Of a stretch of 33,679 nt of DNA, positions 798 through 25,437 are shown piece by piece; the stretch's first letter is position 1, and each line of letters begins with the position of its first letter. The stretch lies in IMG/VR virus record IMGVR_UViG_2541047882_000006; one strand, written 5' to 3'. The notes under the pieces are model-generated. The model ran no database searches. It was not told the origin of the DNA and saw nothing but the letters and a program-made list of their open reading frames with translations. Origin of the DNA: a virus. Taxonomy: Duplodnaviria; Heunggongvirae; Uroviricota; Caudoviricetes. The position numbers and the translations under genes were made by a program.

Positions 798-2600
798 TAT
801 GCAAGCCTCACAATATAGTTAAATGCGATGTTTTTGACGGTGTTTTCCGCGTTACCAGCAGCGTTAACGGTGATGGTGTGTCCATGTGAGCCAATCGCAA
901 CAGAGTGCGTATGAGCACCAATACCGACAGTATGCGCGTGTGCACCTGCAGATGCTGCTGTGCCGGACAGTGAGTGGCTATGATTACCATCTGTACTGGT
1001 ATTAGCTAACGCCCCCGTAGACATACCTACTGAGCCTTGTACACCCCAGGTATTTTGACCTGAGCTTGTATAACCATATTGATAAGTATCTTTAAAAACA
1101 CTGGGGTTAAATCGACGGCCATCTCTATGGCTGTGATTACCAGCTGCATTCGTGCTGCCACTTAAACTATGGGTATGCGCACCAGTGTTATTCGTGGATT
1201 TAGTGCCGTAATCAAACGACGATGTGGTTTTCGTCCCCAAATCCGTACTGGATGCGCTGGCGCTGTGGGTGTGCGATTTAATGCCGTCCTGTTCCTGAGA
1301 CAATACGGCACGACCACTGGCAGGTTTACCCTTAATCGTCCAGCCACGCATATCAGGGATCACGCCTGACGGATAAGCAGCTGCAAGTTTCGGGTAAGCA
1401 GATTTGTCAAAAGTCTGCCCCTGCATCACGGCATAACCAGACGGAACGGTATCTGATGGCCACGGGATTGGTGCGCCGACTGGGTAGCTTTCTGGTGGAA
1501 GATTTTTCGAGGTATAAACTTCTGCCCAGTCTTCCTCAAAACCATAACCGTCTCTTGAAGAACGGTAGAACAGACCTCTATTTCTGTAATGTGCCTTCAT
1601 CTGCAGGGTGCGGCAACTTCCGACTCCGGTATAGAAGTTAACCAGAATATAGCTGTCGCCAGAGCGGGTGACATTGTAAGCGCCTGATTCGGCATTCCAG
1701 GGAACGCCACCATCAGCATCCGCATATGACCCTGTTGCCCTTCTTGCGAAAGCGGCAACATGCGCAGCGGTTAAAGTGATATCAGTAGAACCATCAAATG
1801 GAACACCGGATATTTTTCTTGCAGTCTGAAGTTTTGTAGCAGTTGCAGCATTACCAGTGGTGTTCTGGTTACCCGTAGTGTTTACACCTGGAAGGTTAAT
1901 ATTTGCAGAACCGTCGAAAACAACTCCACCGATAGATCTTGCCGTCTGCAATTTCGTGGCTGTACTTGCATTACCATTCAATGAACCAGTTAATCCACCT
2001 GTAACAGACAACGGACCTGAAACTGTTCCTCCGGTTGTTGGCAGCGCTCCAATATCTGATGGTGTAGGTTTCTGATGTGAGCTATACATCGTATAAACAA
2101 CACCACCGGTAACGCTGGAAGGCTTACTCGCTGAATATGTTGGCGAGGTATAAATAGAAACTGACGCATTTGTAGTACAATCCCAATGGATATTTACACT
2201 CGTCGCATAATTGCCAATCTCAACGTAAATATCATATGTATCGCCGGATGTGTTGATCCAGGCGAAATTCGTTAATCCGACGGCTGTACGCTTCCACAAA
2301 GCTCCGGTAATCCCTTTGGGGTTTCCATTGCCTGCTCGTAGAACCAGTTCTGAAATGCCTGCCTGCTGTGGGGAGCCGACGTTGTAACCAGCGCCACCAA
2401 TCAATGCGATGTAAACGATGGAACTCGCTTGTGGCATGGTAACCGTTGCCAGTTTGAACCACCCTGCCCCGCCAGAGAAAGAGATCGTTACTGAATTTAA
2501 AGTGCCAATATCTTTCGGTGTTAATGTTATATCCGCAGTCAGTGCTTTCCCGTTAACTTTTCGGTTAGATGGTACCCTGCCATTCGCATTGTCATTCGCT
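797..2600 (-). pseudogene. stfR: side tail fiber protein, C-terminal portion only (5'-truncated)
   Basis: Longest start-initiated ORF is 797-2437 (546 aa) with tail-fiber-type repeats ([40 protein letters not shown]). The frame stays open about 55 codons further upstream with no ATG/GTG/TTG and runs into the J remnant in the +1 frame. K-12 StfR is about twice this length as I recall it. Confidence 0.75.
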
Positions 2601-2603
2601 GCT

Positions 2604-2780
2604 TTAACTGCCTTCAGTGTCCAGCACTGGCGTACTGTTCAGCAGCACGCTTTTTAATCCATCCACCGGACCTTCAACCGGCCCTTCGCTGATGGCATCG
2701 ATCACACTCAGCAACTGCGTGGACTTCAGGTTGTCCTTCGCTTCGCGCGGGGTATGCCCCTTACTGCTGCCTTTACCCAT
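2604..2780 (-). pseudogene. remnant of lambda J-type central tail fiber gene (first 58 codons, then stop)
   Basis: Reverse complement from 2780 translates [58 protein letters not shown]-stop, matching the N-terminus of lambda gpJ as I recall it and diverging right after TEG. A full J gene would encode over 1100 aa. Confidence 0.8.
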
Positions 2781-2840
2781 TCGTCATGCTCCATAAACGA
2801 CAAAACCGCCCGGAGGCGGTTTCACATAAAACATTTTGCA

Positions 2841-3488
2841 TCAGCGACCAATCACCACAACCTGACCACCGTCCCCTTCGTCTGCCGTGCTGATCTCCTG
2901 AGAAACCACCCGCGACCCCACACGCATTTCACCGTACAGAACAGGCAAAACATTGCCCTGAGCAACCATGTTATCCAGTGAGGAAAAATAGGTGTTCTGT
3001 TTGCCGTTATCTGTACTGGCTGCCGTGGACGTCCTGGCTTTCGGTGCCAGCATCTGCGCCACTCCGCCCAGGACCATACTGGCCCCTGCCGCATACATGC
3101 CCGATACAGCCGCGGCACCCAGCCAGCCCACAGGGTTCCACCATGCCACCGCAATCAGCGCCGCCCCAAGCACCACCTGAAACACACCGCCACTTTTAGC
3201 TCCCACCAGACGCGGCACGATGTGGATCACGGCACCATTTGCCAGCGGCTCATTAAGACGGGCAGACAATTCGGTTTCACCGGCATCACGCCCGGCAATG
3301 CGTACCTGATACCAGCCGTCGCTCAGTTTCTGACGAAACGCCGGGATCTGTATGGCCAGCGCCCGGATGGCTTCGGACCCCGTTTTCACTCGAAGGTCGA
3401 TGCGGCGGCCAAATCGTTGTAAATCCCCGTAAAGGCAGATGCGTGCCATGCCCGGTGACGCCAGAGGGAGTGTGTGCGTCGCTGCCAT
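2841..3488 (-). CDS. tail tip assembly protein I (lambda gpI-like)
   Basis: 215-aa track ORF; N-terminus MAATHTLPLASPGMARICLYGDLQRF and C-terminus near-identical to lambda gpI as recalled; sits between K and the J remnant in lambda order. Confidence 0.9.
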   Translation of the reverse strand: MAATHTLPLASPGMARICLYGDLQRFGRRIDLRVKTGSEAIRALAIQIPAFRQKLSDGWYQVRIAGRDAGETELSARLNEPLANGAVIHIVPRLVGAKSGGVFQVVLGAALIAVAWWNPVGWLGAAAVSGMYAAGASMVLGGVAQMLAPKARTSTAASTDNGKQNTYFSSLDNMVAQGNVLPVLYGEMRVGSRVVSQEISTADEGDGGQVVVIGR

Positions 3489-4832: not shown

Positions 4833-5170
4833 CAGATCACCACTTCGTCAAACTGACACGAAAAATCGGTATAGGTGATATGTTCTGTCGCTGACCACGT
4901 TCGACACACCACTCTGATTTTTCTGTTAATACCCGGCGGGCGCCAAAAAAAAGATTTATAGCCTTCATGCCGGGCTAAAAATTTTTCAAATGAATCACGT
5001 TCATTCGCCTCAACTTTGAAATCACAGGTGAAAACGCGCAGAGAATGATTAAGTCCATTTGGACTTCGTTGCTCATAACCATCGCCAAATCTTACAGTTT
5101 TTATCGATGGTTTATTTTCTGTTTTCATTCCATCCTCTGGTAACCAGTGAAATTCTTCCGTATTAGCCAC
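4832..5170 (-). CDS. minor tail protein M (lambda gpM-like)
   Basis: 112-aa track ORF; [16 protein letters not shown] and [15 protein letters not shown] resemble lambda gpM; lies between H and L. Confidence 0.8.
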
Positions 5171-8100
5171 TTAACATTCCCCCATCACGTCGCATATTTA
5201 ACAGATTGCCCTGCACCCGCTGATCAACCATCCCCATAAGTGCTTTTATTGCCTGAGGGCCAATCTCTCCATTCTGGCCGTCATTTTGAATAGTGATTTG
5301 GTATACAGGGGCATAGGTAATATCTCCGCCTCCATTACCACTTTTACTATTAATAGCTCTGACACCAAGAGAACCATCGGAAGTTCGTGTTAATGGCATA
5401 ATGGCTTCCGGACCAGCCTCACCAAAAACACCAGCCCCTCTTGCAAAAGCAAAAAATTGCGGGGAATCATAAATACCGTTCGAATACGTGTTCAATGACG
5501 GAGACTCATAAACACCGCCCTTTGCATTCGGAATAAATTTACTAATAGCACTCCCGATAGTTCCTAAAATCCCCCCAGAAGAACTGTTACTAATGCTGTC
5601 GAAAATCCCAGTAATTGAAGCCTTTAATGCTATTCGACTAAGATCCGAAATCACGGAAGTAGCGAAAGAACGAAAATTTGCCTTGCCTGTCGTGACAAAA
5701 TCACCCAACGCATCGGTCATTCCATCAAACATCTGAGTCGTGGTTGATTTTATCTGCTCACTGATATCCTTAGTGTCATCCAGCCAGTTATTGAATCCCT
5801 GGGAGGCACCACTAACCCAGTCTCCTGCCTGAATATCGAGCTGCTCGTTTTTCTGTCTGACAATTTCTTTTTCTCGTTCCAGAGCATCATTCAGAGCCTG
5901 CATTTTCTCCTGAAAAACATGATTTGACATCCCACGGGATTTATCTGCATAGTCACGTTCAAGTTGCAGACGCTGATTGTTATATTCACGTTCAATCCGC
6001 AGTAATTCCTGCTGGCGTTGCTGATTTTTATCGCCAACCCCATAACCAGCAATCTGAATATCATACCCCTGTTGACGATTATCAATCGAAGCCTGCAATG
6101 AATCACGCCATGCAGCTATTTCGGCGGATTCCTTGATTAGCCTGTTATTTTTTTCAATCGCAACATTTTTCTCCATCAACGCGGTTATTTCTTCCCGGTG
6201 TAAGAGAAGCGATTTCTGATCCTGGGTTAATTTCGATGACGGTCGTGACTCCAGGTCGGCAATCTGCTGACGCCACTTAACCAGTTCCTGTTCAGAGGAA
6301 CTTAATTTAACGGTTAATTCAGTTTGTGAACTTAGTAACGCATTCTGTTGATTCAGATGATCAATCATTCGTTGGGCAGCATCATCCGAATAACCTTTCG
6401 CCTTTGGTTGCTTTGGATCTTTATAACGCTCATTTATTTGAGCGATAAAATTATTATATTCTTCCTTTGAATACTGACTCTTTAGCTTTTCCAGTTTTGC
6501 AAGTTCACTAGCTCTCTGCTGCTCCCGGGTCTGATATTGTTTTGAAAAGGCATCTGCTCTCTGTCTGAGTTCAATTCCTTCCTGTTGTCGCTTGTTGTAA
6601 TCGTTTATTGATGAATTTAGGACGTCCTGAGCAATTTTTTCTGCTTGAAGTACGCCCAATTGCTGCTTTAATCGTGCCAGCCTTTTATTTTGAGCTCCGC
6701 CATCTCCAATGCCACCTAACCCGAAAACTCCGGGTCGGGTATTTTTTTCTATTTCATCAATTTGACGGAGAACATCTGAGATTTTTTGATCAAGGGAGGC
6801 CTCACGGCCAATATCCAGCATGGAATCCCATGCCCATTTTGCGGAGTCTGCCACAGCTTTCCATGCAGTCTCAAGATAACCAAGATTTTCTTTAATCTGG
6901 TTGGTGCGCTGGATCATTGAGGATGAGTATGCTTCTGTCGCAATGCGGGCGGCCTCCTGCTGGTTCCCTTCATCCTGTAGCGCCTTAATCTGGTTATAAG
7001 TCGCAATTGTCAGAAAATGGTACTGATCATTAAGTTTTGATATGGCACTGACAGGATCCTTTGCAATTTCATTGAAGTCATTAACCAGTTGTTCGGTTGA
7101 TATTCCTGTTACTTCGCTCGTTTTTACTATCGCTGTCGTCACTTGCTCCAGCGAACTGCTCGCTACCTTTCCCGAACGCACAAGCTGGTTTAATACTGCC
7201 GCCGCAGCGCCAGTTGTCGAATCAGCCGCATTCCCGGCACGTTGAGCTATATCGGCCAATTGCCCGCTGGTTGTCCCCAACTGATTTCCGGTAAGAATAA
7301 GAGATTTATTAAATTCGTCCTGCTCCTGAGAGCCTTTATAGTAAGCCAGCCCTAAGACGCCAACGGCTGCTGCGGCCAGGGTAAAAGGATTAATTAATCC
7401 CAGCACATAAGAACCAACACCTTTGATCGCCGGGCCAATCCCACCGAACATATCTTTTAGCTGGCCGCCCTGCTGCATTAACACCATAAAAGGCGACTGA
7501 CCAGTGGACAACCCAACAACAATATCCGTCATTTGTGCAGGCAACATGCGCATAGCAAAAGCCGTTTGTTTTGCCGACATTCCGGTTTTGCTTAATTGAG
7601 ATTGAGTAACCTCAAGCTCACTCCGCATAGCACGAAGTTTTCCAGAAAGTTCCTCATACATTTCAGGAGAGAGCATCCCCTTAGCTTTTGCTTCATTGAG
7701 CTGTTTCTGTTGTTCTACCAGACGATTAAAAGCAGTTCCGACAGGGTCAAGTTGAGCAATCAGACGTTGCAAAGCAGCAACCTGTTCATCATGCGCTTTT
7801 GCTGCTTCTCGCTCTGCCTGAGCCTCTCCGGTAAGCTCTCGCCGTGTTTCCTGTATTTTTCGGCTATAATTCTCAAACTGAGAACCATTTATTTTCCCGG
7901 ATGCAAACGCAGCATTAAGTTCATCCTGCTGTTGTTCAAGATTTCTTAGCGCCGCAACCAGAGGGTCGATCTTGTCCAGCATTCTTTGAAAGGCCTGAGC
8001 CTGCGATTCCTGCTGGGCGGCAGCAAGTTTTCCGGCCTTCTCGGCTTCTCTCTGCGCTTGCGCAACCCCGCTCAATTCCTCTGTGGTTTCATTAAGTTTA

Positions 8101-8396
8101 CGGACAAGAAATTCATATTCTTCTTTATCAATAAGCCCTTTATCGAAAAATTTCTTTAATTCAGAATAGCGTCGACCGACAGTATCAATTGCGGCACCAA
8201 CTGGATCAATAGCTGCTTTTAATTTTGCGAGCGCGTTCTTCTCATCTTCTGTTGCCTTAGTCACTTTCCCTGCGCTATTTGCAGCAGTTTCCCCGGCCTG
8301 CGTCATTTTGACTAATGAGGAGGTCAGATTGTCAGCATTATTTTTTGCTCCAGTGCTATCAATAATTATTGCGAGACGCGAGGTTTGCTCTGCCAT
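5163..8396 (-). CDS. tail tape measure protein (gpH-like)
   Basis: 1077-aa track ORF; long coiled-coil N-terminal half with three ~65-aa tandem repeat units, hydrophobic central segment, C-terminal region resembling lambda gpH ([19 protein letters not shown]). Confidence 0.85.
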
Positions 8397-8420
8397 TTAT
8401 TAAAACTCCAGACAACAAAA

Positions 8421-8438
8421 AGCCCACCGAAGTGGGTT
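8421..8438 (-). terminator. terminator-like hairpin between T and H (minus-strand sense)
   Basis: Minus-strand RNA reads cccac-uucg-guggg followed by cuuuuuguugu: a short GC stem with a UUCG loop and a U-tract, about 25 nt upstream of the H start codon. Confidence 0.3.
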
Positions 8439-8559
8439 TCAGGCGACATAATAGTAGATATAGCGATTACGAGGCCACGCAATGCTTTTCTCCAGGAGCA
8501 TCATCGATTTAATTAAAGACACCATCACATCTCTGTAACAGAGTGTACGTAATTAACAA

Positions 8560-8880
8560 CTACACACACTGCTCCTGAAAATACTGGTCATCCAGTGCAA
8601 AGATCACTGCTTCAAACTCATCGCGCTCAATCAATACCGGATGAGTGGCTAAATATTCATTTATCTCTGTCAGAGATAAAGGCAAAGGCACCCCGGTCAT
8701 TCCAGCATAACGTCGGGCACGGGATATTACCGAATAGGCGTACAACAATTCCTTAAGCACCGGGTCTATTTCTGGTTCCGGTATCGGTGGCAACCTGAGT
8801 TTTTCTCGCTTCCATCTTGCCTTTTCCCCCCTTTCTCCCCCGAACTCCGATAACCACCGCTGGGCGGCTATGGCTTTTTT
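8560..8880 (-). CDS. tail assembly chaperone T segment, expressed as a G-T fusion by -1 programmed frameshift
   Basis: Track ORF 8560-8793 (TTG called as start). The same frame is open upstream through the G stop. A slippery heptamer A_AAA_AAG lies at 8874-8880 (minus strand), two codons before the G stop at 8868-8870. Confidence 0.65.
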   Translation of the reverse strand, partial: KKAIAAQRWLSEFGGERGEKARWKREKLRLPPIPEPEIDPVLKELLYAYSVISRARRYAGMTGVPLPLSLTEINEYLATHPVLIERDEFEAVIFALDDQYFQEQCV

Positions 8881-9317
8881 ATCGTATCCTGCTTCTGCTG
8901 CTCTTTACCCTGGGCGATGCTGGCTGCTTCTGCAAGGATCTGCCAGTACAACTCTGGATTCTGCTTAAGCAGCGCGATCCCTCGTTCTGGCGTATATTCC
9001 AGTGCAACCTCAGCACCATTAACCAGTTCACCAACCCCTTTCCAGTCTTTCAGCAGATAACGAGCAGCATTATCAATGAGTAAATCATCAACAGAATCTA
9101 CCTCGGAAACCTTTGAAATATCAAACTCCTTCGTTCCGACGTGCAAACTGGCATCCATTTTCTCAATGTGACGACGGATTAATGCATTACGGGAGCGATA
9201 CTGATCGTTATCGCTGCTTGCCACCAACAGTTTTAACCCGTCTACAGGTTTTAAGTCCTTCATTGGCGTAAACCAGCGTTCTCCACCGATGATAATTTTC
9301 TGATTAAGAATAAACAT
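8868..9317 (-). CDS. tail assembly chaperone G (lambda gpG-like)
   Basis: 149-aa track ORF directly upstream of the T frame and H in lambda order; ends with the slippery site; GAGG ribosome-binding site 7 nt upstream, inside the IS903 target duplication. Confidence 0.7.
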   Translation of the reverse strand: MFILNQKIIIGGERWFTPMKDLKPVDGLKLLVASSDNDQYRSRNALIRRHIEKMDASLHVGTKEFDISKVSEVDSVDDLLIDNAARYLLKDWKGVGELVNGAEVALEYTPERGIALLKQNPELYWQILAEAASIAQGKEQQKQDTIKKP

Positions 9318-9319
9318 CC

Positions 9320-9328
9320 ATAACCTCA
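9320..9328. repeat. 9-bp target site duplication ATAACCTCA (left copy) flanking IS903
   Basis: Identical 9-mer at 9320-9328 and 10386-10394, immediately outside the 18-bp terminal inverted repeats. Confidence 0.8.
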
Positions 9329-10385
9329 GGCTTTGTTGAATAAATCAGATTTCGGGTAAGTCTCCCCCGTAGCGGGTTGTGTTTTCAGGCAATACGCACG
9401 CTTTCAGGCATACCTGCTTTCGTCATTTTGTTCAGCGCTCGTACCAGGGCCATAGCCTCCGCAACCTGACCATCGTAGTCACGCAGCGTCAGTGAACCCC
9501 CGAACAGCTGTTTTACCCGGTACATCGCCGTTTCCGCTATCGAGCGACGGTTGTAATCTGTTGTCCATTTCCACCGCGCATTACTCCCGGTCATTCGCTG
9601 ATTAGCCACTGCACTGTTACGGTCTGCATATTCACCGGGCCAGTAACCCGCACCTTTTCGGGGAGGGATAAGGGCGCTGATTTTCTTACGCCGCAGTTCA
9701 TCGTGACAGAGCCGGGTGTCGTAAGCGCCGTCTGCCGATGCTGCCCTGATTTTTCTGTGAGTCTGCCGGATAAGACCCGGGAAGGCTTCTGAGTCCGTCA
9801 CATTGTTCAGCGACAGGTCTGCACAGATGATTTCATGTGTTTTACTGTCAACGGCGAGATGCAGCTTACGCCAGATACGGCGGCGTTCCTGGCCATGCTT
9901 TTTGACTTTCCACTCGCCTTCACCGAAGACCTTCAGCCCGGTGGAATCAATTACCAGGTGTGCGATTTCACCCCGGGTGGGCGTTTTGAAACTGACATTA
10001 ACCGACTTTGCGCGCTTGCTGACACTGGTGTAATCCGGGCAGCGCAACGGAACATTCATCAGTGTAAAAATGGAATCAATAAAACCCTGTGCAGCCCGCA
10101 GGGTCAACCTGAACACGCGTTTAATGACCAGAACGGTGGTGATGGCGAGATCAGAATAGCGCTGAGGTCTTCCCCGTGATGAAGGCGTTGTCGACTCATA
10201 CCAGGCCTGAATGGCTTCATCATCCAGCCAGAAAGTTATGGAGCCACGGTTGATGAGGGCTTTATTGTAGGTGGGCCAGTTGGTGATTTTGAACTTTTGC
10301 TTTGCCACGGAACGGTCTGCGTTGTCGGGAAGATGCGTGATCTGATCCTTCAACTCAGCAAAAGTTCGATTTATTCAACAAAGCC
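9329..10385 (-). mobile_element. IS903 (IS5 family) insertion sequence, complete
   Basis: 1057 bp bounded by perfect 18-bp inverted repeats GGCTTTGTTGAATAAATC (9329-9346) and GATTTATTCAACAAAGCC (10368-10385); one transposase ORF; 9-bp direct target duplication; length and repeats match IS903 as I recall it. Confidence 0.85.
9385..10308 (-). CDS. IS903 transposase (DDE, IS5 family)
   Basis: Track ORF 9385-10353 (322 aa from a TTG). Starting at the in-frame GTG (VAKQKFKITNWPTYNK) gives 307 aa; C-terminus MTKAGMPESVRIA recognised as IS903 transposase. Confidence 0.8.
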   Translation of the reverse strand: MAKQKFKITNWPTYNKALINRGSITFWLDDEAIQAWYESTTPSSRGRPQRYSDLAITTVLVIKRVFRLTLRAAQGFIDSIFTLMNVPLRCPDYTSVSKRAKSVNVSFKTPTRGEIAHLVIDSTGLKVFGEGEWKVKKHGQERRRIWRKLHLAVDSKTHEIICADLSLNNVTDSEAFPGLIRQTHRKIRAASADGAYDTRLCHDELRRKKISALIPPRKGAGYWPGEYADRNSAVANQRMTGSNARWKWTTDYNRRSIAETAMYRVKQLFGGSLTLRDYDGQVAEAMALVRALNKMTKAGMPESVRIA

Positions 10386-10394
10386 ATAACCTCA
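10386..10394. repeat. 9-bp target site duplication ATAACCTCA (right copy) flanking IS903
   Basis: See left copy. Confidence 0.8.
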
Positions 10395-10443
10395 TTCAAT
10401 GCGTCCCCCTGTAGTGCAGTACCACAGGGGGAATAACGGAAAA

Positions 10444-10872
10444 TCAACTAATCGCATCAGCACTGGCTTTTGCGATCACGGCAGTCGGGGAGCATTTTTT
10501 TCTGGTTGTCGGCTTTTTACCCTGAGCAACAAGCATCGCAAACTTAGCCTGCTGGTCAGAAATGCCGAATTCATCGGGACAGAACGAAAATTCCTCCGCG
10601 TCGCCCTCATTCAGGCCCGCATCGAATACTGGCTTTTTTTCCTGAGATTTTTCGTTCCGCTTTTGTGCAGTCTGCGCAGATTTTTTCTGCGCACTTTTTT
10701 GCGCAGTTTTGCACATTTCTGTCTGCGCATTTTTCGGAGTTTTTTTGATGTAACGACGGGCTGTTGCGTAATTCAGTCCCCTTGCTTCACACCATGCCAC
10801 CGGAGATATACCGGAGCGGGTGTATTCAGCAATATACTCCTGCTGCAACGCCCCCCAGTCCGGTCTGCTCAT
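10444..10872 (-). CDS. small-terminase-like DNA-binding protein (resembles Rac YdaY region)
   Basis: 142-aa track ORF; N-terminal helix-turn-helix-like segment (ISPVAWCEARGLNYATARRYIKK) followed by a basic, low-complexity tail. Assignment by sequence impression only. Confidence 0.45.
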   Translation of the reverse strand: MSRPDWGALQQEYIAEYTRSGISPVAWCEARGLNYATARRYIKKTPKNAQTEMCKTAQKSAQKKSAQTAQKRNEKSQEKKPVFDAGLNEGDAEEFSFCPDEFGISDQQAKFAMLVAQGKKPTTRKKCSPTAVIAKASADAIS

Positions 10873-10875
10873 CAG

Positions 10876-11127
10876 TTAGTCCTGATTTTTATCCACCCTG
10901 AGTAGTTCGCGCAGAGCAAAGGCATCCCCTTTTCTGGCAAGCTTAAACAATGCCGCTCGTAACTCGGCTTCACCTTTCGCTCTGCCCTTACGGATGGCCG
11001 CATAAAAATCTGTCATTGCTTCCCGATTTTCTTTCAGTCGGTTCAGATCAACATCCAGAACGTCAGCGATTTGTTGTGCAGTCATCCGGCACGCTGCCAG
11101 AGACTCGACTTTCGAATACGGAATCAT
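10876..11127 (-). CDS. small HTH protein (resembles Rac YnaK / terminase small subunit N-terminal fragment)
   Basis: 83-aa track ORF; TAQQIADVLDVDLNRLKENREAMTDFY resembles terminase small-subunit DNA-binding domains. Confidence 0.45.
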   Translation of the reverse strand: MIPYSKVESLAACRMTAQQIADVLDVDLNRLKENREAMTDFYAAIRKGRAKGEAELRAALFKLARKGDAFALRELLRVDKNQD

Positions 11128-11995
11128 TTGTCACCCCCATTGATATGCAGGGTGTCTTCTTCCTGTATTTTTCGTGAAGGATTTTTACTGCAGCGTTGTT
11201 CCAGGTGACCTGATGGTGAATGCGTTTATGGCTGGCACCCATCAGTGAGATTTTTACGCACGACGGCGCATACATGACGGAGTAAAAACTTTTAACGTAG
11301 GTTCCGGAATCCAGATACAGCTCGGTCATTCCGCCGCTGTTTTTCTGCGTCTGTTTCTGCCCTAACTGGACAGCACCGATCGTCATAAACAATTCACCAC
11401 AGCGACCGAGATTCGTGTACGTATTCACATCCTCGTTAATGCGCCCCATGAATGAGAACGGTCGATCAACCGAACAGATAAAGCTGTTCATTGCCTTGCG
11501 TTTCACCCACGAAGCATGGCCGCCATTGTCACCAAGAAAATCCCCGCCCTGCGACATAGCGATGGAAAGAGCAGGTATTGATTCGTAGTACGCCAGCATT
11601 TCAGAAAGGATCGCATCCAGTTTCCTTATCGGAAAATAGGCCTGGTCATAGTTGCGATCCACCCGAAACTGGAACTCGTGATAATCATCATCGAGCTGAA
11701 TGAAGTATTTACACCCGACCAGTTTTGCCAGGTCGAAACAGGCATTACGGGCGTAAAAAATTGAGCGGCGGTCACAGAAATTATCGGCTTCGTCAAAACG
11801 ACTGGCGATATCGGCTTTGGAAAACACCAGCACCTGTTCACCAAATTCAGCCATGTACTGATGCCGTGTCTTATCTTCATCATCAACAACGATAAAAATT
11901 TTCCCGGTATAGCCAGCACGACGCAACGTCCGGTAAGTCAGAACTTTGTCCGGTCGCCCGTGAGTCAGAATAAAGGCGCAAAAATCATCACGCAT
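11063..11995 (-). CDS. hypothetical 310-aa protein, possibly a nucleotide-sugar transferase-like (GT-A-like) fold
   Basis: Track ORF 11063-12016; start moved to the internal ATG (MRDDFCAF) preceded by GGAGG and overlapping the ParB-like stop (ATGCGTGA), suggesting translational coupling. Two acidic DxD-like motifs (FIVVDDEDK, IQLDDDYHEF). Fold assignment is speculative. Confidence 0.5.
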   Translation of the reverse strand: MRDDFCAFILTHGRPDKVLTYRTLRRAGYTGKIFIVVDDEDKTRHQYMAEFGEQVLVFSKADIASRFDEADNFCDRRSIFYARNACFDLAKLVGCKYFIQLDDDYHEFQFRVDRNYDQAYFPIRKLDAILSEMLAYYESIPALSIAMSQGGDFLGDNGGHASWVKRKAMNSFICSVDRPFSFMGRINEDVNTYTNLGRCGELFMTIGAVQLGQKQTQKNSGGMTELYLDSGTYVKSFYSVMYAPSCVKISLMGASHKRIHHQVTWNNAAVKILHEKYRKKTPCISMGVTNDSVFESRVSGSVPDDCTTNR

Positions 11996-12779
11996 ATTCC
12001 TCCTCCTCACCACCATGCATGATCTCCACCATGCGCTGCGTCATCCGGACAAATCCATTTTCAATAGCCTGCTGATAATCAATGATCACCAGCGCCGACT
12101 CCTCGAAAAAACACTGAATTTCAGCGGGGGCGTGAGCGTAATAGTCCGCAATTCTGCTGAAATTAAACACCGTGTGACGTTCTGCCGCACACAGGAGGAA
12201 TTTCTCAATATCAGGCTCAAGGGACGCCGAACGTATCCGGCTGATCAGCTCCTGAGTTTTCGTATCGTCGTACAGTTCACTGATATCCGGTTTACCGCCC
12301 GACGGCTCATAAACAGGCGTATCAATTTTCGTCGTATACGGCTCCTCCTCATTTCCTGTACCGGGCAAAACATCCGTCAACAGTTCATCAATTTCTGTCG
12401 GGATGAAGCCTGTCAGGGAGACATCAAAATCAGCATTGATTAGGTCCGACAGCTCCATCCGCAACAGATCTTCATCCCAGCCAGCATTCATCGGCAGGCG
12501 ATTATCTGCCAGGCGGTACGCCTGTTTCTGCTCATCCGTCAGGCCAGACAGAACAATGACCGGAACAGAATCCATTTTGAGCATTTCAGCCGCCATAACA
12601 CGACCGTGACCCGCAATAATTTCGCCCTTTTCGTCAATCAGCACCGGATTAGTCCAGCCGAATTGCTTAATACTTTCTACCAGTTGTGCCACCTGCTCAG
12701 TACTGTGCGTCCTGGCGTTGTGCGCATACGGTGACAATTCTTGTAATGGGCGATAGACTATCTTTAATTTCTCGCTCAT
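11988..12779 (-). CDS. ParB-like nuclease domain protein (ParB/sulfiredoxin N-terminal fold) with C-terminal extension of unknown function
   Basis: 263-aa track ORF; ParB N-terminal-domain hallmarks (PLQELSPYAHNARTHS, IIAGHGR, QAYRLADNRL); AAGG ribosome-binding site upstream of the ATG. Confidence 0.7.
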   Translation of the reverse strand: MSEKLKIVYRPLQELSPYAHNARTHSTEQVAQLVESIKQFGWTNPVLIDEKGEIIAGHGRVMAAEMLKMDSVPVIVLSGLTDEQKQAYRLADNRLPMNAGWDEDLLRMELSDLINADFDVSLTGFIPTEIDELLTDVLPGTGNEEEPYTTKIDTPVYEPSGGKPDISELYDDTKTQELISRIRSASLEPDIEKFLLCAAERHTVFNFSRIADYYAHAPAEIQCFFEESALVIIDYQQAIENGFVRMTQRMVEIMHGGEEEEYA

Positions 12780-12916: not shown

Positions 12917-14374
12917 TTAGGAGCGCCAAAAAAAACCTGAAAACAATATAATAACAGGATAAATTTCAAGGCGACCAAGAATCATAGCTATGCACATTAA
13001 ACATTTTGCAATGTCATTAAGCACTCCGAATGACGATGCAGTAGCCCCAAAACCTAATCCCATATTATTAATACATGCAGCCACTGTTGCAAATGATGTA
13101 AGAAAATCATATCCCATACCATTTAACACCAGTATAAAAAACACCGTGAAGAGAGTATAAAGAAAAAAGAAACTCCATACAGACCTCATTACACGATCTG
13201 TAACTATCTTCCCTCCTACATTTACACTCAACAACGCTCTGGGATGAGAAAGCTGATTTATCTCGTGTTTGCTTTGTTTGAAAAGTATAAGAAATCGAAG
13301 TGACTTAATTCCACCACAAGTTGAACCTATACATCCCCCAAAGAAACTTGACAACAGCAAAAACACTATCGTATGCGTGGGCCAACTTGCATAATCCTGC
13401 GTAGCTAAACCATTATCAGTGAGCATGGAGCTGGCAAGAAAAAACGAATGAATAAAACTTCCATGCAAGTCATACATACCTATATGCCAGACCTGGAAAG
13501 AGGTAACAATGATCACCCCTAAGGCTATTAACAGAAAGAAACGAAGTTCAATATCTCTGATTAAAGGTTTTATCGTTTTCCTGCTAATAACAATATACCA
13601 AAGAGTGAAGTTGAAAGCCGATAGCAGGGAAAAAGAACCAGCCACCAGCTCAACCAAATAGTTATTAAAATATCCGATACTCTCGCTATGAGTTGAGAAA
13701 CCACCAAGCGAAACTGTGGAAATCCCGTGACAAATAGCATCAAACAAAGGCATTCCTGCAAGTCTATAACAGACAATACAAGCAATACCTAATAAAGAAT
13801 AAGTTATCCACAGTGTCCGTGACGTATCGGCCAGGCGGGGAGTGAGTTTGTCATCCTTAAATGGCCCCGGCATTTCTGACTGATAAAGCTTTGCACCACC
13901 AATACCCAATAATGGCAATACAGCAACCGCCAGAACAATAACTCCTAAACCACCTATAAAATTTAACTGTGACCGATAGTACAAATATGCCCGAGGTAAT
14001 GAACTAACATCATCAATTACAGTTGCTCCTGTTGTTGTTATTCCAGAAACCCCTTCAAACAGAGCATCAATGAACGTTAAATTAAGTTCTGAGTCAATCC
14101 ATAAAGGGAATGCACTAATAACAGAAAACAAAATCCAAAACATTACAATTATAATAAACCCATCACGGGTACGTAATTGAATGCCAGATTTCTTAGTTGT
14201 ATACCACGCTCCGCCACCAATGCAAAAAAATATAACGAAAGTTATAAAGAAAACGAACAGGCTTTTTTCTTTATAAAACAATGCTACAACCATTGGTGGC
14301 AACATTGAAAGACTATAGAGCCAAACCAGGAACCCACACATATGAGTAACAACTCTTACATGAGATGTATTCAT
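12917..14374 (-). CDS. trkG: Trk-system potassium uptake protein TrkG (prophage-borne TrkH paralog)
   Basis: Track ORF 12917-14392; start placed at MNTSHVRVVTHMCGFLVW to match K-12 TrkG (485 aa as recalled); polytopic membrane protein; AT-rich. Confidence 0.9.
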   Translation of the reverse strand: MNTSHVRVVTHMCGFLVWLYSLSMLPPMVVALFYKEKSLFVFFITFVIFFCIGGGAWYTTKKSGIQLRTRDGFIIIVMFWILFSVISAFPLWIDSELNLTFIDALFEGVSGITTTGATVIDDVSSLPRAYLYYRSQLNFIGGLGVIVLAVAVLPLLGIGGAKLYQSEMPGPFKDDKLTPRLADTSRTLWITYSLLGIACIVCYRLAGMPLFDAICHGISTVSLGGFSTHSESIGYFNNYLVELVAGSFSLLSAFNFTLWYIVISRKTIKPLIRDIELRFFLLIALGVIIVTSFQVWHIGMYDLHGSFIHSFFLASSMLTDNGLATQDYASWPTHTIVFLLLSSFFGGCIGSTCGGIKSLRFLILFKQSKHEINQLSHPRALLSVNVGGKIVTDRVMRSVWSFFFLYTLFTVFFILVLNGMGYDFLTSFATVAACINNMGLGFGATASSFGVLNDIAKCLMCIAMILGRLEIYPVIILFSGFFWRS

Positions 14375-14511
14375 ATCTAAATATTCTTTCAATTATAACC
14401 ACCTTGCTGCAATATTATGATTATACTGTATAAAATTTAACTCCTCTTAGATCTTACTTCACTGTTCCTTATGAAACAATCATCAAAATGAATCATATTG
14501 TAGTTAAGATT

Positions 14512-14976
14512 TTACTTTAAACACTGCTCGGTTATGTATTGCTGAGCACCTTCAAGTTGGGCCTGCATCATTACCAGTCGTTCCCGGAGGGTGAAATAAT
14601 CCCGTTCAGCGGTGTCTGCCAGTCGGGGGGAGGCTGCATTATCCACGCCGGAGGCGGTGGTGGCTTCACGCACTGACTGACAGACTGCTTTGATGTGCAA
14701 CCGACGACGACCAGCGGCAACATCATCACGCAGAGCATCATTTTCAGCTTTCGCATCAGCTAACTCCTTCGTGTATTTTGCATCGAGCGCAGCAATATCA
14801 CGCTGACGCATCTGCATGTCAGTAATTGCCGCGTTCGCCAGCTTCAGTTCTCTGGCATTTTTGTCGCGCTGGGCTTTGTAGGTAATGGCGTTATCACGGT
14901 AATGATTAACAGCCCATGACAGGCAGACGATGATGCAGATAACCAGAGCGGAGATAATCGCGGTTACTCTGTTCAT
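14512..14976 (-). CDS. i-spanin Rz
   Basis: Track ORF 14512-14988; start at [17 protein letters not shown] (N-terminal transmembrane helix) directly after the endolysin stop; coiled-coil periplasmic domain; contains the embedded Rz1 frame. Confidence 0.8.
14571..14756 (-). CDS. o-spanin Rz1 (outer-membrane lipoprotein), embedded in Rz in the +1 frame
   Basis: 61-aa track ORF; lipobox LVVVGC; proline-rich mature region ([16 protein letters not shown]); fully nested in Rz as in lambda and phage 21. Confidence 0.75.
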
Positions 14977-15470
14977 TGCTGACCCCACAAACAGATTTCA
15001 CGCTCAATCTCACGACGAGTCATGAGACCTTTCCATTGCTTACCGCCAGCATATGTCCAGCGACGTAGCTGATCACATGCGCCTTTGATATCGCCCTGGT
15101 TTATTTTGCGAAGAAGCGTCGATGTTCTGAAATTGCCAGCACCCACGTTGTAAACGAATGAGTAAAGAGCGCCGCGCGTTGTTTCCGGTATATCGACTTT
15201 GATGTACGGGTTAATTTGTCTGGCGACAGTGGCAAGGTCTTTATTCAAGAGTGTTTTGCATTCTGCTTTGGTATACGTTTTACCGAGCATGATGTCTTTT
15301 CCTGTATGCCCGTGACATACAGTCCATACACCAACAATATCTTTGTATGGTATGTAGCTGACACCTTCCAGACCATCGTTACCACTTGGGCCAGTGATTA
15401 ACACTGATGCTATAGCAATTGCTCCGCCACCAATAGCAGCAGCAACGACTTTTCGTAATGATGGAGGCAT
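14973..15470 (-). CDS. SAR endolysin (T4-lysozyme-type glycoside hydrolase with N-terminal signal-anchor-release segment, phage 21 R-like)
   Basis: 165-aa track ORF; N-terminal weakly hydrophobic Gly/Ala-rich segment ([18 protein letters not shown]); catalytic E-x8-D-x5-T pattern ([16 protein letters not shown]). Confidence 0.85.
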
Positions 15471-15685
15471 TATTCACCTCTCGCAGCCTTGCGCTTATCT
15501 TCTTTAATCTTGAAATAAAGGTTTGTCAGGTACGTCAGCAGGCCAAATACCAGACTACCCAGCACACCGATTGCAGCCCACTGTGACGGAGTTACTCTAT
15601 CGAGCAACTGTAAAAACCAGTAGCCAGCACTGCCTGCGGAGGTGCCGTAGGCAATGCCTGTTGAAATTTTGTCCATGGATTTCAT
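15470..15685 (-). CDS. holin (phage 21 S-type pinholin)
   Basis: Track ORF 15470-15742; start placed at [14 protein letters not shown] (dual-start motif MKSM); two transmembrane segments; C-terminal [13 protein letters not shown] recognised as S21-like. Confidence 0.8.
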
Positions 15686-15936
15686 AGCCTCACCTCCGCA
15701 CGGAACGGATGGCATAGTTATTATGTGTAGGCTTTCAGACACATCAATCAGAGCCTTAATTGATATATATGCTGGAGACGATGCAATATAAAAAGCTCGC
15801 CGTAGCGAGCTAATAAAATGTATTTCTCTGATATTATGTTTATTTGTATTAGCTCAGACTTGACATCACAGGTTTCGTATATAGAACATCATCAAATCTG
15901 TCAGTTTGCTATGAATGAGATATAGTAATTGAAGAG

Positions 15937-16332
15937 CTAACCTCGCATGTCAAAGCCAGATTTCTGAAAATCTCTGTAGACTTCCGGATTGTTGAAGGCC
16001 GGAAATTTGGCTTTATGAGCTGCGGACTTTATCGCTTCGCAATAGGCTTTATCACCGTTACTGGTAGATATTTTTAACGCCGTGCCATCCTGAGAGAATT
16101 CCATATGCAACCTGCATTTTTTCCCTTTCCAGTTATGCGGCTCATCAAGTTTGGCATTAATTGCAGCTCTGATTCCCCGCGCTTGCGCCCCCCATTCATC
16201 CTGATCATCCCAGCGTCCTGAACTGCAACTACCTGTAGCAGTAGTTTTGTGGCAATCTGAAGGGTGTAAAGGTGTGCATCCCGCAACAAAACCGACCCAA
16301 AAAGTCAACATAACGATTTTCTTTAATCCCAC
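15937..16332 (-). CDS. lipoprotein with TolA domain III-like C-terminal domain (paralog 2, divergent)
   Basis: 131-aa track ORF; signal peptide and lipobox (FVAGC); C-terminal ~80 aa share the two-Cys pattern and the PEVY-x-F motif with the upstream paralog and with TolA domain III. Confidence 0.6.
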   Translation of the reverse strand: MGLKKIVMLTFWVGFVAGCTPLHPSDCHKTTATGSCSSGRWDDQDEWGAQARGIRAAINAKLDEPHNWKGKKCRLHMEFSQDGTALKISTSNGDKAYCEAIKSAAHKAKFPAFNNPEVYRDFQKSGFDMRG

Positions 16333-16482
16333 TTCTTGCTCCTCAATCCATTAAAATCTCAGCAATAGTAGTTGTTACGTCCGCCACTGGCTCAGAGCTG
16401 ACTATCCGCTAAATTTAGCTCAGTGCCGTAGCTGTGTCAGAACAAACCTAAGCCGAAACCGTTTATTACAAAACAATAAATA

Positions 16483-16911
16483 TCAGGGTTTAAAATCCAG
16501 CACCCCATTTTGAAATACTTTATATACTTCCGGCGAAGGGGGGGCAGGTATATCAGCATTCTTTATCGCATTCATCGCTTCACGACATAAATCGAGGTCT
16601 CCACTTTCTCTTTTAACCTCCAGTAGAAGGCCATTCGGGGCCATATGCATTCTCAGTGTACACTCTTTTCCTGAATACTTACTCGCATCCCCGAACTGTT
16701 TTTCGATGGCGCTCTTGATTTGATGGGCATACAGACGGATATCCTCACTAACATCAGAAGTACGTTCAGATGAACTCACATACTGTGTCTCTATTGCTTT
16801 ATCGGAGTAATATGATGTACGGTCATGATAATTTGTCGATACAGCATCAGTGCACCCGATAATAATCCCACTAATAATCAACGTAAGAATTGATGCGCTA
16901 CGAAAACCCAT
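16483..16911 (-). CDS. lipoprotein with TolA domain III-like C-terminal domain (paralog 1)
   Basis: 142-aa track ORF; lipobox IIIGC; C-terminus YAHQIKSAIEKQFGDASKYSGKECTLRMHMAPNGLLLEVKRESGDLDLCREAMNAIKNADIPAPPSPEVYKVFQNGVLDFKP aligns closely with the E. coli TolA C-terminus (...YAGQIKSAIESKFYDASSYAGKTCTLRIKLAPDGMLLDIKPEGGDPALCQAALAAAKLAKIPKPPSQAVYEVFKNAPLDFKP) as I recall it. Confidence 0.7.
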   Translation of the reverse strand: MGFRSASILTLIISGIIIGCTDAVSTNYHDRTSYYSDKAIETQYVSSSERTSDVSEDIRLYAHQIKSAIEKQFGDASKYSGKECTLRMHMAPNGLLLEVKRESGDLDLCREAMNAIKNADIPAPPSPEVYKVFQNGVLDFKP

Positions 16912-17849
16912 TTTTCCTCACATATGTCATATAGTAAAGGATTATATATACCGTTGTTTTGGACGCTCAAACAGCGAATCAGATCAAATAAAACGCACAT
17001 TTGTTAACATTTACACAAAGTCTGCGTGGGATATTCTGAAAGAATATCCATAATGTGGAGAGAATCTATTGAAGTGCATGGTGCCGGGTGCCTCCCGGTG
17101 AACAAAATGTTCGTGATACCTGTCGGCGACAGAAAAGGTTAATGGTATCACCCCACCGCACAGGGGGATTCACCATGCAGGAGTTTTCTTAGCAAACTCA
17201 CTGCGCGCCCGGCAACTCCCAACCACATAAAAATGCGGAGTTTGTGGCATTTATGCATATAACTCGCAGGAATTATCTTAAAAAACTGATGTCGATCCGG
17301 ATTAAAAAGAAGCAGGTCATCATCAGATGACTGGAAAAAAGGAAAACAAAAAATACTCATCATACAGTTTTGATTGCAGGGATGAGCCTGCTATGCACAA
17401 TATGCAGAATATAAGCAAGATAAAAATATGCAGGCATATTATTTCGGATTTTGTTATTAACACAACCTTTTTAATAATCATTTGGCATACAATAAACCAG
17501 CCCAGAAAGAACCGCCTAAACAGGCGGTTGGTCAATACAAAGGATGCTTCGTCTTTATTATAGTAATCTGAGGCGTCGGGTGTCTTGTATCAGACAACAT
17601 ATTGTCCCGCTAAACAGCGAATTACAAACCACCCTGCAATGATCTCTCATCTCATTTTATATGAGTTGACGACATCAGGATAACGCATCATCAGCCCCTG
17701 CCAAGAAATATCAAAACTCCCGCCAGCAATGTGTTATCACAATATTGTAAAAAAAACACAGCACCGAAACTATAACTGGTCTCTGTTATAATTTGGAGCA
17801 GAAAGACCAGTTGCCCAACTAGCAGCATTCTCCCCTGCTTTCCTGACGT

Positions 17850-17876
17850 AAAAAAACCGCATTAAGCGGTTTTTTT
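17850..17876. terminator. bidirectional intrinsic terminator; candidate late terminator tR' downstream of the Q-like gene
   Basis: Perfect inverted repeat AAAAAAACCGC-attaa-GCGGTTTTTTT: GC core stem with an A-run on one side and a T-run on the other, about 80 nt downstream of the Q-like stop codon. Confidence 0.6.
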
Positions 17877-17956
17877 ACGATGTCCATGTCTGCAATCCGC
17901 CTCGCGATACAGCTTTGCGAAGCATAGCAAAATTGAAGCAGTTTATACGTAAGAAA

Positions 17957-18499
17957 TCAAGCCATTTTCTCAGCAAATGATTCACGCATGGGAATATATA
18001 GGGCATACTCAGCAACAGCTAACCAATTAGCAATCCGTTTTTCGCATGTGCTAAAACACCACTCTGGGTGTGCATCATTTAGCAATTCAGCCATTTTGCG
18101 CTTAGTCATCCCCCGCCCTTCATAGCGTTGCCGGAGAATGCAAATCAATCCTGGATGCTCTGCCAGCACCTCACTTATGACTCGATCAATACATAACGCC
18201 TCTGCATCAGTACAATGCGCCAGCCAGCTCTTTTGCTTGCCGTTGATCATCTCTCGCAAAAACGCTTCCAGCTCAGCTTTCTCTATTCCCGCTTTTTTCA
18301 TTCTGCGCAGGGCTTCATTAATGGCTGTTTTCGTCAGTTTTTTGGATGCCAACAACTGATTGAACATATTCCCTGACCTGCCACCGCCAATATACGACCA
18401 GCGCCCCCACATACGTAGTTTTCCCTGAATCCAGACACTTTCCAGCGTGGTGAGGCGAAGGTGTTCTCCGCTTTTTCCTGTATTCGTTGGGTAAATCAT
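17957..18499 (-). CDS. putative late-gene antiterminator (Q-like), assigned mainly by position
   Basis: 180-aa track ORF immediately upstream of a terminator and the lysis cassette, following nin-type genes. No confident sequence match recalled. Confidence 0.4.
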   Translation of the reverse strand: MIYPTNTGKSGEHLRLTTLESVWIQGKLRMWGRWSYIGGGRSGNMFNQLLASKKLTKTAINEALRRMKKAGIEKAELEAFLREMINGKQKSWLAHCTDAEALCIDRVISEVLAEHPGLICILRQRYEGRGMTKRKMAELLNDAHPEWCFSTCEKRIANWLAVAEYALYIPMRESFAEKMA

Positions 18500-18786
18500 A
18501 AATGACCTTTCTTTCTCCAGATTTCTTGTGTGCGAAAAACCCCTTCAGCATGCATCAGGCGCAATTCTTCTTTGGTGTAATCGCTGGTTTTTACCCGCCC
18601 GTCGATTAGATCGTGGCATGAGCTACAGGCTATCGCCGCCTGCATATCGTGTGGTTTTGTCGCTGTTCCGCACGTCCCCGCCAGCCTGTAATGCGCCAGC
18701 ACAGAGGTTTCGGGATTGTGATTGCAGTAGCCAGGGATTCTGATCTGGCACATCTGGCCTTTAGCCGCTTTACGTAAATTCACCAT
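18496..18786 (-). CDS. YbcO-like nin-region protein (DUF1364-type, Cys-rich)
   Basis: 96-aa track ORF; LRKAAKGQMCQIRIPGYCNHNPETSVLAH...IACSSCHD resembles DLP12 YbcO as recalled. Confidence 0.6.
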   Translation of the reverse strand: MVNLRKAAKGQMCQIRIPGYCNHNPETSVLAHYRLAGTCGTATKPHDMQAAIACSSCHDLIDGRVKTSDYTKEELRLMHAEGVFRTQEIWRKKGHL

Positions 18787-19385: not shown

Positions 19386-19660
19386 TTCTCAATCTCTCGA
19401 TGGCGCAGTGCAGCAGATGCCAGTTGTTCAGGCTGACGTATAAAGTATAAATAAACTGGTTCCAGTGTAAAGCCCCCACATTGATGGAATAAAAATCAAA
19501 CAATAGATTGCTGGGATAAAAATACAACGCTTATTATTAAAAGCGGTTAGACAAATTAAATTTTAATGTTATGCAAATCTGCCAGATTAGCATAATATCT
19601 CATTTGAAAACCGCTGAAATAACAATCTTATCAGGATTAATCATATTAAGGTGAGTAAAT

Positions 19661-25430: not shown

Positions 25431-25437
25431 TTAAGCA

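Follow-up and report, generated by a model that had tools for sequence, protein, structure and literature searches.

A probable deletion scar between the small terminase and tail tube genes of a Rac-type prophage of Escherichia coli

Background

The cryptic prophage Rac of Escherichia coli K-12 is incomplete relative to Rac in other strains (PMC6379469). A search of the literature returned only general statements on this incompleteness, and no paper mapping the endpoints given below. The K-12 comparison sequence used here is the Rac prophage of MG1655 (NC_000913.3, 1411899-1434958). Two E. coli prophages that keep the head-tail module served as further references, those of M18 (NZ_CP010219.1; locus L001) and WP3-W18-ESBL-08 (NZ_AP022003.1; WP3 below). 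They count as intact for the compared module only: M18 ydaY carries an IS2, and the WP3 tape measure gene has an internal stop. The 10.5-kb module is found at 99.4-100% identity across 10 phage records, for example Escherichia phage vB_EcoS-683R6 (ON470595.1).

We have analyzed a window of 33,679 nt, the whole stretch of DNA considered here, in which a preliminary description had reported that small-terminase-like ORFs directly adjoin the tail chaperone gene and that large terminase, portal, head and proximal tail genes are absent. The gene content is as reported, and the region is very probably the scar of a single deletion in a decaying Rac-type prophage, followed by the insertion of an IS903-type element. 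The scar is a case of ordinary prophage decay, and no new kind of system is involved.

A Rac-type prophage without its head-tail module

The window represents an E. coli prophage of the Rac type and belongs to the K-12 Rac lineage. Over the 8,963 bp from intR to racR (33679-24717), its identity to K-12 Rac is 99.84%. The early region is colinear (intR, xis, ralR/RalA, recT, recE, racC, kilR, sieB, racR), with RalA located at 31945-32123 by Rfam, and the cargo gene trkG lies in a region 99.5% identical to its K-12 counterpart. A further mark of Rac-type prophages is integration at the attachment site in ttcA; the boundary of the window is the end of intR, the host flank lying outside it (4.1-Mb source contig KE701672.1). 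Both prophages carry trkG, the 5' part of ynaK, ydaY, the 5' part of the tape measure gene and tfaR, and the block from terminase to tail tube is missing from both. Unlike K-12 Rac, the window has holin, lysozyme and Rz genes, an iteA/iteS pair, a full ParB-like gene, a TAGT glycosyltransferase gene, a 69-aa ORF, the 5' part of a small terminase gene (terS'), a full chaperone gene with its upstream region, and a full tape measure gene together with M, L, K and I genes. The insertion sequences differ as well, an IS903 being present in the window and an IS5, in lomR, in K-12 Rac.

Absent from the window are the large terminase, portal, minor head, scaffold-like, coat, connector, tail terminator and tail tube genes. 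In M18 and WP3 this module lies between the same flanks, which are 99.2-100% identical to those in the window, with unchanged gene order on both sides. What the relatives carry and the window lacks comprises terS codons 123-364, terL, a DUF4055 portal, a Mu F-like minor head protein, a DUF6651 protein, a P22-type coat protein, five small ORFs including the tail terminator, and tube codons 1-300. Pfam and PHROGs confirm four of these genes in the relatives, namely terL, portal, coat and tube. The ancestral order would have run from the lysis genes through trkG, the ParB-like gene, the glycosyltransferase, the 69-aa ORF, terS, terL and portal to the minor head protein, scaffold-like protein, P22-type coat protein and connectors, and from there to the tail terminator, tail tube, chaperone G/GT and tape measure. 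The preliminary description had compared this region to a lambda-type late operon. The gene order does parallel that of lambda, but the analogy goes no further: the ancestral head module, with its P22-type coat protein, DUF4055 portal and Terminase_6 large terminase, is not lambda-type.

The deletion and its junction

In colinear alignment the window is missing exactly 9,320 bp relative to M18 and WP3, with the same endpoints against both. The deleted segment corresponds to positions 16625-25944 of the M18 locus L001, and it starts at codon 123 of the small terminase gene (364 aa) and ends at codon 300 of the tail tube gene (320 aa). By blastn against L001 and L007 and by a three-way junction alignment, the junction was placed at 10506-10507 (no strand), where codon 122 of terS is followed in frame by codon 301 of the tube gene. 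It is present in an NCBI assembly and in separate Logan assemblies, and is thus not a misassembly.

Exact identity at the junction is limited to 1 nt, the A at 10507. Around it lies an imperfect overlap (CGACA against CGATA, 4/5 matching), judged against the closest relatives, which are one base off within the 5 nt and stand in for the true parental sequence. A tube gene reading CGACA, which would make the 5-nt overlap perfect, was sought among relatives, and the closest of them, 99.7% identical, reads CGATA. With the breakpoints placed in register, 36 of 120 positions are identical and extended homology is not present. Homologous recombination between repeats was ruled out on the basis of these values. 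Because the junction has only 1 nt of exact identity (4/5 in the imperfect overlap), the deletion probably arose by illegitimate recombination with almost no homology, and its molecular route was presumably slippage or end joining. One such event would have removed the 9,320 bp and fused terS codon 122 to tube codon 301 in frame, leaving a 142-aa chimeric ORF that ends at the tube gene's own stop and is followed by the native tube-chaperone spacer. Later, an IS903-type element transposed into the ribosome-binding site of the chaperone gene, with duplication of 9 bp.

This allele is rare. The junction occurs in none of 5,426 complete E. coli genomes, as against 348 with the K-12 junction, and an exact 41-mer was absent from the species-representative genomes. 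Exact-protein look-up alone recovered it, from a single NCBI draft assembly and from Logan assemblies; carriers include GCA_000460335.1, ERR3328240, SRR958583 and related runs.

Relation to the K-12 Rac deletion

It had been suggested in the preliminary description that the deletion endpoints differ from those in K-12 Rac and that alignment with K-12 Rac and intact Rac-like prophages would map them. That alignment, against the module-keeping relatives, supports the suggestion. The K-12 deletion measures ~11.56 kb (L001 about 14606-26165), compared with 9,320 bp in the window, and extends from codon ~85 of the ParB-like gene ynaK into codon 15 of the chaperone gene ydaY. Both ends differ, with the window deletion nested fully inside that of K-12, and the two are different alleles. 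The mapping also explains ynaK and ydaY of K-12, which represent a fragment of the ParB-like gene fused to a chaperone gene missing its first 15 codons. At the Rac locus, E. coli strains have lost the virion module through separate deletions that do not share their endpoints. The window and K-12 types are two of these, and there may be others, as a match to one half of the K-12 junction query is all that some genomes show. With our result the known series of Rac decay states gains one allele whose endpoints are mapped exactly, which is little more than bookkeeping.

The nesting of the two deletions is what would be expected if the window state were the direct precursor of K-12 Rac, a second and larger ynaK-to-ydaY deletion having occurred in a window-like ancestor; a later deletion of this extent would erase the window junction. 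Single nucleotide differences in the flanks give a mixed signal on this point. The left flank has 3 sites at which the window and K-12 agree with each other against M18 and WP3, and only 2 of 1,166 positions there separate the two, a slight indication of relatedness to K-12. The right flank gives no such indication, since K-12 and the window differ there at 22 of 1,637 sites and the window differs from the module-keeping relatives at 4-6. The frequencies given above, 0 complete genomes for the window allele and 348 for that of K-12, also argue against a precursor, as does the 100% identity of terS' to full-length copies, which suggests a recent event. In addition, further alleles may exist, as other genomes match the K-12 junction query in its ynaK half and not in its ydaY half. 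On balance we consider it improbable that K-12 Rac descends from the window state.

The chimeric ORF and its upstream neighbour

ORF 10444-10872 (minus strand, 142 aa) is an in-frame TerS(1-122)-tube(301-320) fusion, and the 142-aa 'hypothetical protein' of public assemblies can now be recognized as this chimera. It matches PHROG 51 'terminase small subunit' with an E-value of 5e-37, although only over profile positions 1-107 of 261. The terS remnant (10507-10872, minus strand; codons 1-122 of 364) is identical to M18 TerS at 122 of 122 residues; many E. coli genomes contain its DNA at 100% identity across 624 nt, with the homology stopping at window position 10507. In the full-length 364-aa TerS the Pfam Terminase_2 domain covers residues 122-321, all of which was deleted in the window. 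Because the PHROG 51 match is partial and the whole Terminase_2 domain is lost, a full gene was cut here, rather than DNA having been gained by the relatives. ORF 10444-10872 is a gene fragment and not a terminase.

The remainder of the chimera is what is left of the tail tube (major tail) gene at its 3' end (10444-10506, minus strand; codons 301-320 plus stop). Its translation, TRKKCSPTAVIAKASADAIS followed by the stop, is the C-terminus of the WP3 tube protein, with 20 of 20 residues identical; the full-length tube protein matches PF18906 Phage_tube_2 at 1.4e-31. From these 20 codons through their stop to the end of the 60-nt spacer the sequence is native, and comprises the 3' end of the tube gene and the tube-chaperone intergenic region. 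Directly upstream of terS lies a small ORF (10876-11127, minus strand) of 83 aa when read from the first ATG, or 69 aa (10876-11085) in public assemblies. Over profile positions 145-218 of 319 this ORF matches PHROG 309 'terminase small subunit' (8e-23), and it is unaffected by the deletion; the 69-aa form is annotated as a hypothetical protein in M18, WP3 and L003. Neither of these two ORFs nor the chaperone had a match in the local copy of Pfam, the PHROGs matches notwithstanding.

The earlier assignment of both ORFs as small-terminase-like therefore agrees with their PHROG families, but it had taken as a gene what is a fragment with the deletion junction inside it. Tail proteins at 10444-11127, which were said to be what would make the gene order intact, are represented there by the 20-codon tube tail of the fragment and nothing more.

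The TerS(1-122)-tube(301-320) protein could conceivably be a retained functional product, such as a helix-turn-helix decoy against packaging by related superinfecting phages. The frame is preserved, at least three independent assemblies have an intact ORF, and the N-terminal 50 residues weakly match the helix-turn-helix family phrog_32288 (7e-3). However, one third of random deletions are in frame, and the allele is rare, with no sign of spread or of sequence change after the event, so that we regard a retained function as very unlikely. If expressed from the late operon, the chimera might act as a dominant-negative or decoy against superinfecting Rac-like phages, with the TerS part as a possible DNA-binding domain, and would then be a domesticated prophage fragment with an exclusion function; we find this equally doubtful.

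The IS903-type element

Insertion sequences of the IS903 group are about 1,057 bp long, with 18-bp terminal inverted repeats, a 9-bp target duplication and one DDE transposase. The element at 9329-10385 (minus strand) is 1,057 bp in length and ends in 18-bp perfect terminal inverted repeats (GGCTTTGTTGAATAAATC), with a perfect 9-bp target duplication, ATAACCTCA, at 9320-9328 and 10386-10394. Its transposase ORF (9385-10353, minus strand) matches PF01609 and PF13737 (DDE_Tnp_1 domains) and is annotated 'IS5 family transposase' in E. coli genomes. The assignment is to the IS903 group of the IS5 family, a level that covers IS903, IS903B or IS102. The insertion point is the ribosome-binding site of the chaperone gene, and the element is a simple insertion by ordinary transposition.

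An allele from an independent public assembly (L004) has the identical deletion junction and an empty IS site with a single TGAGGTTAT. The deletion came first and the IS insertion later, which gives a clean order of events at this locus. The same allele bears on the distance between the ORF stop and the chaperone gene, which had been put at about 50 bp with the IS removed. The gap is indeed short, but it measures 60 nt from the stop at 10444 to the ATG at 9317 when the IS and one copy of the duplication are taken out, and the gap in the IS-free L004 is also 60 nt.

The position of the element between the two retained blocks, and the ability of IS903 to promote adjacent deletions, would fit a deletion caused by the IS itself, either as an adjacent deletion or through recombination between two IS copies. 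An adjacent deletion should have an endpoint at the IS end and no matching duplication, and neither feature was found at 10506/10507: the 9-bp target duplication is perfect, and 112 nt separate the IS end from the junction, which falls within the terS' ORF. Moreover, L004 shares the junction and has an empty site, which refutes an IS-caused deletion unless L004 arose by precise IS excision, a very rare event. We thus judge a causal role of the element to be extremely unlikely. Least credible of all, to the point of being practically inconceivable, is that nothing was deleted, the short arrangement being ancestral and M18-like prophages having gained the module, or the ORFs being tail genes in intact order: the compact, in-frame look of the junction is all that favours this, against an ORF in which the initial third of a small terminase is followed by the final 20 tube codons, both identical to parts of full-length genes, and against the impossibility of a virion without terminase, portal, coat or tube gene.

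Retained tail genes and the chaperone region

With the deletion accepted as the cause of the missing module, the prophage is presumably unable to package DNA or to make heads or tail tubes, and would be locked in the chromosome. The retention of G, T, a full-length tape measure, M, L, K and I, as first described, was confirmed. These distal tail genes are probably leftovers and not a working unit. A tailocin-like or satellite reading of them was ruled out, the tube gene and most of J being absent. The tape measure gene (5163-8396, minus strand; 1,077 aa) matches TMP_2 at 1e-81, as well as Tape_meas_lam_C and TMP_4, and has the same length in M18; in K-12 it is truncated (ynaA), the K-12 homology ending at window position 7462.

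The tail chaperone gene of the preliminary description is the ORF at 8868-9317 (minus strand, 149 aa), and its match to PHROG 313 'tail assembly chaperone' (1e-46) corroborates the assignment. It is a G analogue and the full-length form of K-12 ydaY, annotated publicly with PF27119 Phage_YdaY and named ydaY in E. coli genomes. Its neighbours are the tube gene remnant on one side and the tape measure gene on the other, and in M18 and WP3 ydaY likewise follows the tube gene and precedes the tape measure gene. A putative -1 frameshift site, the slippery heptamer A-AAA-AAG (8874-8880, minus strand), is located one codon (CCA) before the chaperone stop, and the -1 frame stays open over 8880-8560. 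All the features of a G/GT chaperone, namely family homology, position, slippery heptamer and an overlapping open -1 frame, are found in the sequence. Frameshifting at the heptamer would yield a G-T fusion. The conceptual 252-aa fusion matches PHROG 313 positions 20-246 of 258 at 1.7e-51, which is better than G alone. The T-like extension (8560-8880, minus strand; listed as a 77-aa ORF at 8560-8793) matches PHROG 1189 at 4.8e-37 and shows a weak match to Phage_TAC_18 (4e-4, under the Pfam cut-off). Lambda G/GT occupies the same place between the major tail and tape measure genes, and the window shares with it a slippery heptamer towards the 3' end of G and a -1 frame that is open, which in the window would give a fusion of ~250 aa; the lambda heptamer, however, is G-GGA-AAG. 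The window chaperone belongs to PHROG 313 / Phage_YdaY, and its likeness to lambda G is one of position and frameshift layout.

A native stem-loop with a 12-bp stem and no T tract is present in the tube-chaperone intergenic region (10404-10432, minus strand). A terminator scan did not call it. Its predicted energy is -22.2 kcal/mol (z = -4.1), none of 200 shuffles folding equally well, and it is kept in the module-retaining relatives, inside the aligned segments.

Small-terminase-like genes next to the tail chaperone gene

From its ORF list and its alignment to K-12 MG1655, the window is assigned to the Rac type of prophage: from intR to racR (window 33679-24717) it shares 99.84% identity with K-12 Rac over 8,963 bp. 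A stretch of 12,429 bp is 100% identical to contig KE701672.1 of NCBI draft assembly GCA_000460335.1. Most lysis, late and tail genes discussed here lie on the minus strand.

Two small-terminase-like ORFs abut a tail assembly chaperone gene (G), as the preliminary description had stated. ORF 10444-10872 (minus strand, 142 aa) matches PHROG 51 'terminase small subunit' (5e-37, profile positions 1-107 of 261 only), ORF 10876-11127 (minus) partially matches PHROG 309 (small terminase, 8e-23), and 8868-9317 (minus, 149 aa) matches PHROG 313 'tail assembly chaperone' (1e-46). The reported absence of the terminase-to-proximal-tail block was confirmed by alignment. With the IS element removed in silico, the window is colinear with two loci that keep the head-tail module, L001 (E. 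coli M18, NZ_CP010219.1) and L007 (WP3-W18-ESBL-08, NZ_AP022003.1). Window 13000-10507 corresponds to L001 14131-16624 and window 10511-9106 (IS-free) to L001 25940-26279; the corresponding L007 positions are 3185 and 12501, and 9,320 bp are missing relative to M18 and likewise to WP3. The module of M18 comprises, in order, a 69-aa ORF, terS (364 aa), terL, a DUF4055 portal, a minor head protein, a DUF6651 protein, a P22-type coat protein, five small ORFs including the tail terminator, tube (320 aa), ydaY (the chaperone gene) and the tape measure; WP3 has the same gene order and is closer to the window on the tube side. The deleted genes identified by Pfam and PHROGs are large terminase (Terminase_6N/6C), portal, coat and tube. 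The missing module is also present in GenBank phage records, e.g. vB_EcoS-683R6 (99.4-100% identity across 10.5 kb).

The junction (window 10506/10507) lies inside ORF 10444-10872. terS is left with exactly 122 codons, followed directly by tube codon 301, so that the two are joined in frame. The chimera agrees with TerS at 122/122 residues and ends in the 20 residues of the WP3 tube C-terminus, TRKKCSPTAVIAKASADAIS; the stop at 10444 is thus the tube gene's own. Pfam Terminase_2 covers residues 122-321 of full-length TerS, so the terS remnant is without the whole domain. The spacer between this stop and G, previously put at about 50 bp, is 60 nt long and is the native tube-chaperone intergenic region. 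Just downstream of the tube stop is a stem-loop (10404-10432, minus; 12-bp stem, no T tract; -22.2 kcal/mol, z = -4.1) that is conserved in module-keeping relatives and might set the tube:chaperone expression ratio or stabilise the tube mRNA.

A slippery sequence, A-AAA-AAG (8880-8874, minus), ends one codon ahead of the chaperone stop codon, with an open -1 frame extending from it to 8560. A 77-aa ORF in this region (8560-8793, minus) matches PHROG 1189 and, weakly, Phage_TAC_18. Against PHROG 313 the conceptual 252-aa G-T fusion scores better (1.7e-51, covering 20-246 of its 258 positions) than G alone. The chaperone gene is genuine, in the G/GT arrangement expected between tail tube and tape measure genes, with a putative frameshift. 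The 163-nt gap between the T-frame stop and the tape measure start (8397-8559) contains a terminator-like hairpin (8423-8436, minus; CCCAC-TTCG-GTGGG, then CTTTTTGTTG), unusual inside a tail operon.

Origin of the deletion

The breakpoint sequences are GCCGACA/GAGG on the terS side and ACGATA/ACCAG on the tube side. Exact identity at the junction is limited to one A (CGACA and CGATA agree at 4/5 positions), and with the breakpoints in register 36/120 flanking positions are identical, which indicates that extended homology is absent. The loss probably came about by illegitimate recombination, through slippage or end joining.

The IS element (9329-10385) is 1,057 bp long; its 18-bp inverted repeats are perfect, and the 9-bp sequence ATAACCTCA flanks it as a direct duplication (9320-9328 and 10386-10394). 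It is annotated in E. coli genomes as an IS5-family transposase, and its dimensions fit IS903. A deletion caused by the IS is ruled out: the target duplication is perfect, the junction is 112 nt away, and a locus in Logan assembly ERR3328240 (L004) has the identical junction with the IS site uninterrupted, bearing a single TGAGGTTAT. The deletion thus came first and the insertion afterwards. The element sits in the chaperone gene's Shine-Dalgarno region; owing to the duplication a GAGG still stands 7 nt before the ATG, and transcriptional polarity is therefore the only effect that would be expected. The same gene is struck by different elements in different strains, an IS903-type at the ribosome-binding site here and an IS2 within ydaY in M18 (L001 26280-27610). 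Together with an internal stop in the WP3 tape measure gene, the latter indicates that the reference relatives are themselves decaying.

Comparison with K-12 Rac

Alignment with K-12 Rac and module-keeping relatives, which the preliminary description had proposed, mapped the endpoints to terS codon 122 and tube codon 301 and upheld its view that they are unlike those of K-12. K-12 sequence ends at L001 14605, inside the ParB-like gene (the stump is ynaK), and restarts at L001 26166, 44 nt into ydaY. At ~11.56 kb, the K-12 deletion shares neither endpoint with that of the window, which lies wholly within it. The tape measure gene, truncated in K-12, is full length in the window (5163-8396, minus; 1,077 aa; domains TMP_2, TMP_4 and Tape_meas_lam_C), and G/GT, M, L, K and I are retained, as described earlier.

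The K-12 junction occurs in 348 of 5,426 complete E. coli genomes, the window junction in none of these and in none of the species-representative genomes. Window 10395-11130 is matched by 916 of the 5,426, none past query position 624-629 (window 10507-10502). Some E. coli genomes (H78-H81) match the K-12 junction query in its ynaK half alone, with no ydaY match; these may be further deletion alleles.

Of the two origins suggested previously, an independent or an intermediate decay state, we favour independent deletions in the window and K-12, although the flanking SNPs are mixed. Descent of K-12 from a window-like precursor by a second, enclosing deletion would fit three left-flank sites common to both, but is less favoured, since it is K-12 that stands apart on the right flank, where it and the window differ at 22 of 1,637 bp.

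Consequences and a second lesion

This element presumably cannot make particles, since it lacks a functional terS as well as terL, portal, coat, connectors, tail terminator and tube. A second lesion lies further along the tail genes. Homology to M18 covers the I gene and extends ~170 nt into J, as far as window 2611; for the ~1.1 kb beyond this (1519-2610) blastn gives no match in M18, and similarity picks up again at 1518, within the C-terminal portion of the side tail fibre gene (stf). The bulk of J, together with lom and the N-terminal portion of stf, is thus missing or replaced, leaving a 546-aa ORF (797-2437, minus; context 797-3488). Given both lesions, G/GT, the tape measure, M, L, K and I are probably remnants that do not make up a functional tail or tailocin. 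It is already established (PMC6379469, citing Lawrence et al. 2001) that prophages decay by deletion and that Rac is less complete in K-12 than in other strains; the window adds one further precisely mapped allele of this familiar decay.

Other genes

Directly upstream of the terminase genes, overlapping genes (11063-12779, minus) encode a ParB/Srx-like protein, full length at 263 aa whereas ynaK is an 87-aa stump, and a glycosyltransferase of the TET-associated family (PF20691 TAGT, 3.8e-35; RefSeq 'GREB1-related protein') that matches PHROG 842 'beta-glucosyl-HMC-alpha-glucosyltransferase' (7e-104). The two may act together in DNA modification; no TET/JBP gene was seen near them. trkG (12917-14392) and the lysis genes come after the intR-racR region. 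ORFs of 384 and 754 aa (19802-23195, minus) are equivalents, by position and near-identity, of the M18 genes annotated as an anti-phage pair, iteA (an ATPase) and iteS (an S8 peptidase), which K-12 Rac lacks. Rfam matches above the gathering score, all on the minus strand, are the RalA antitoxin sRNA (31945-32123, 225 bits), IS009 (256-454, 223 bits), within the tail fibre assembly gene, and STnc100 (17022-17208, 87 bits).
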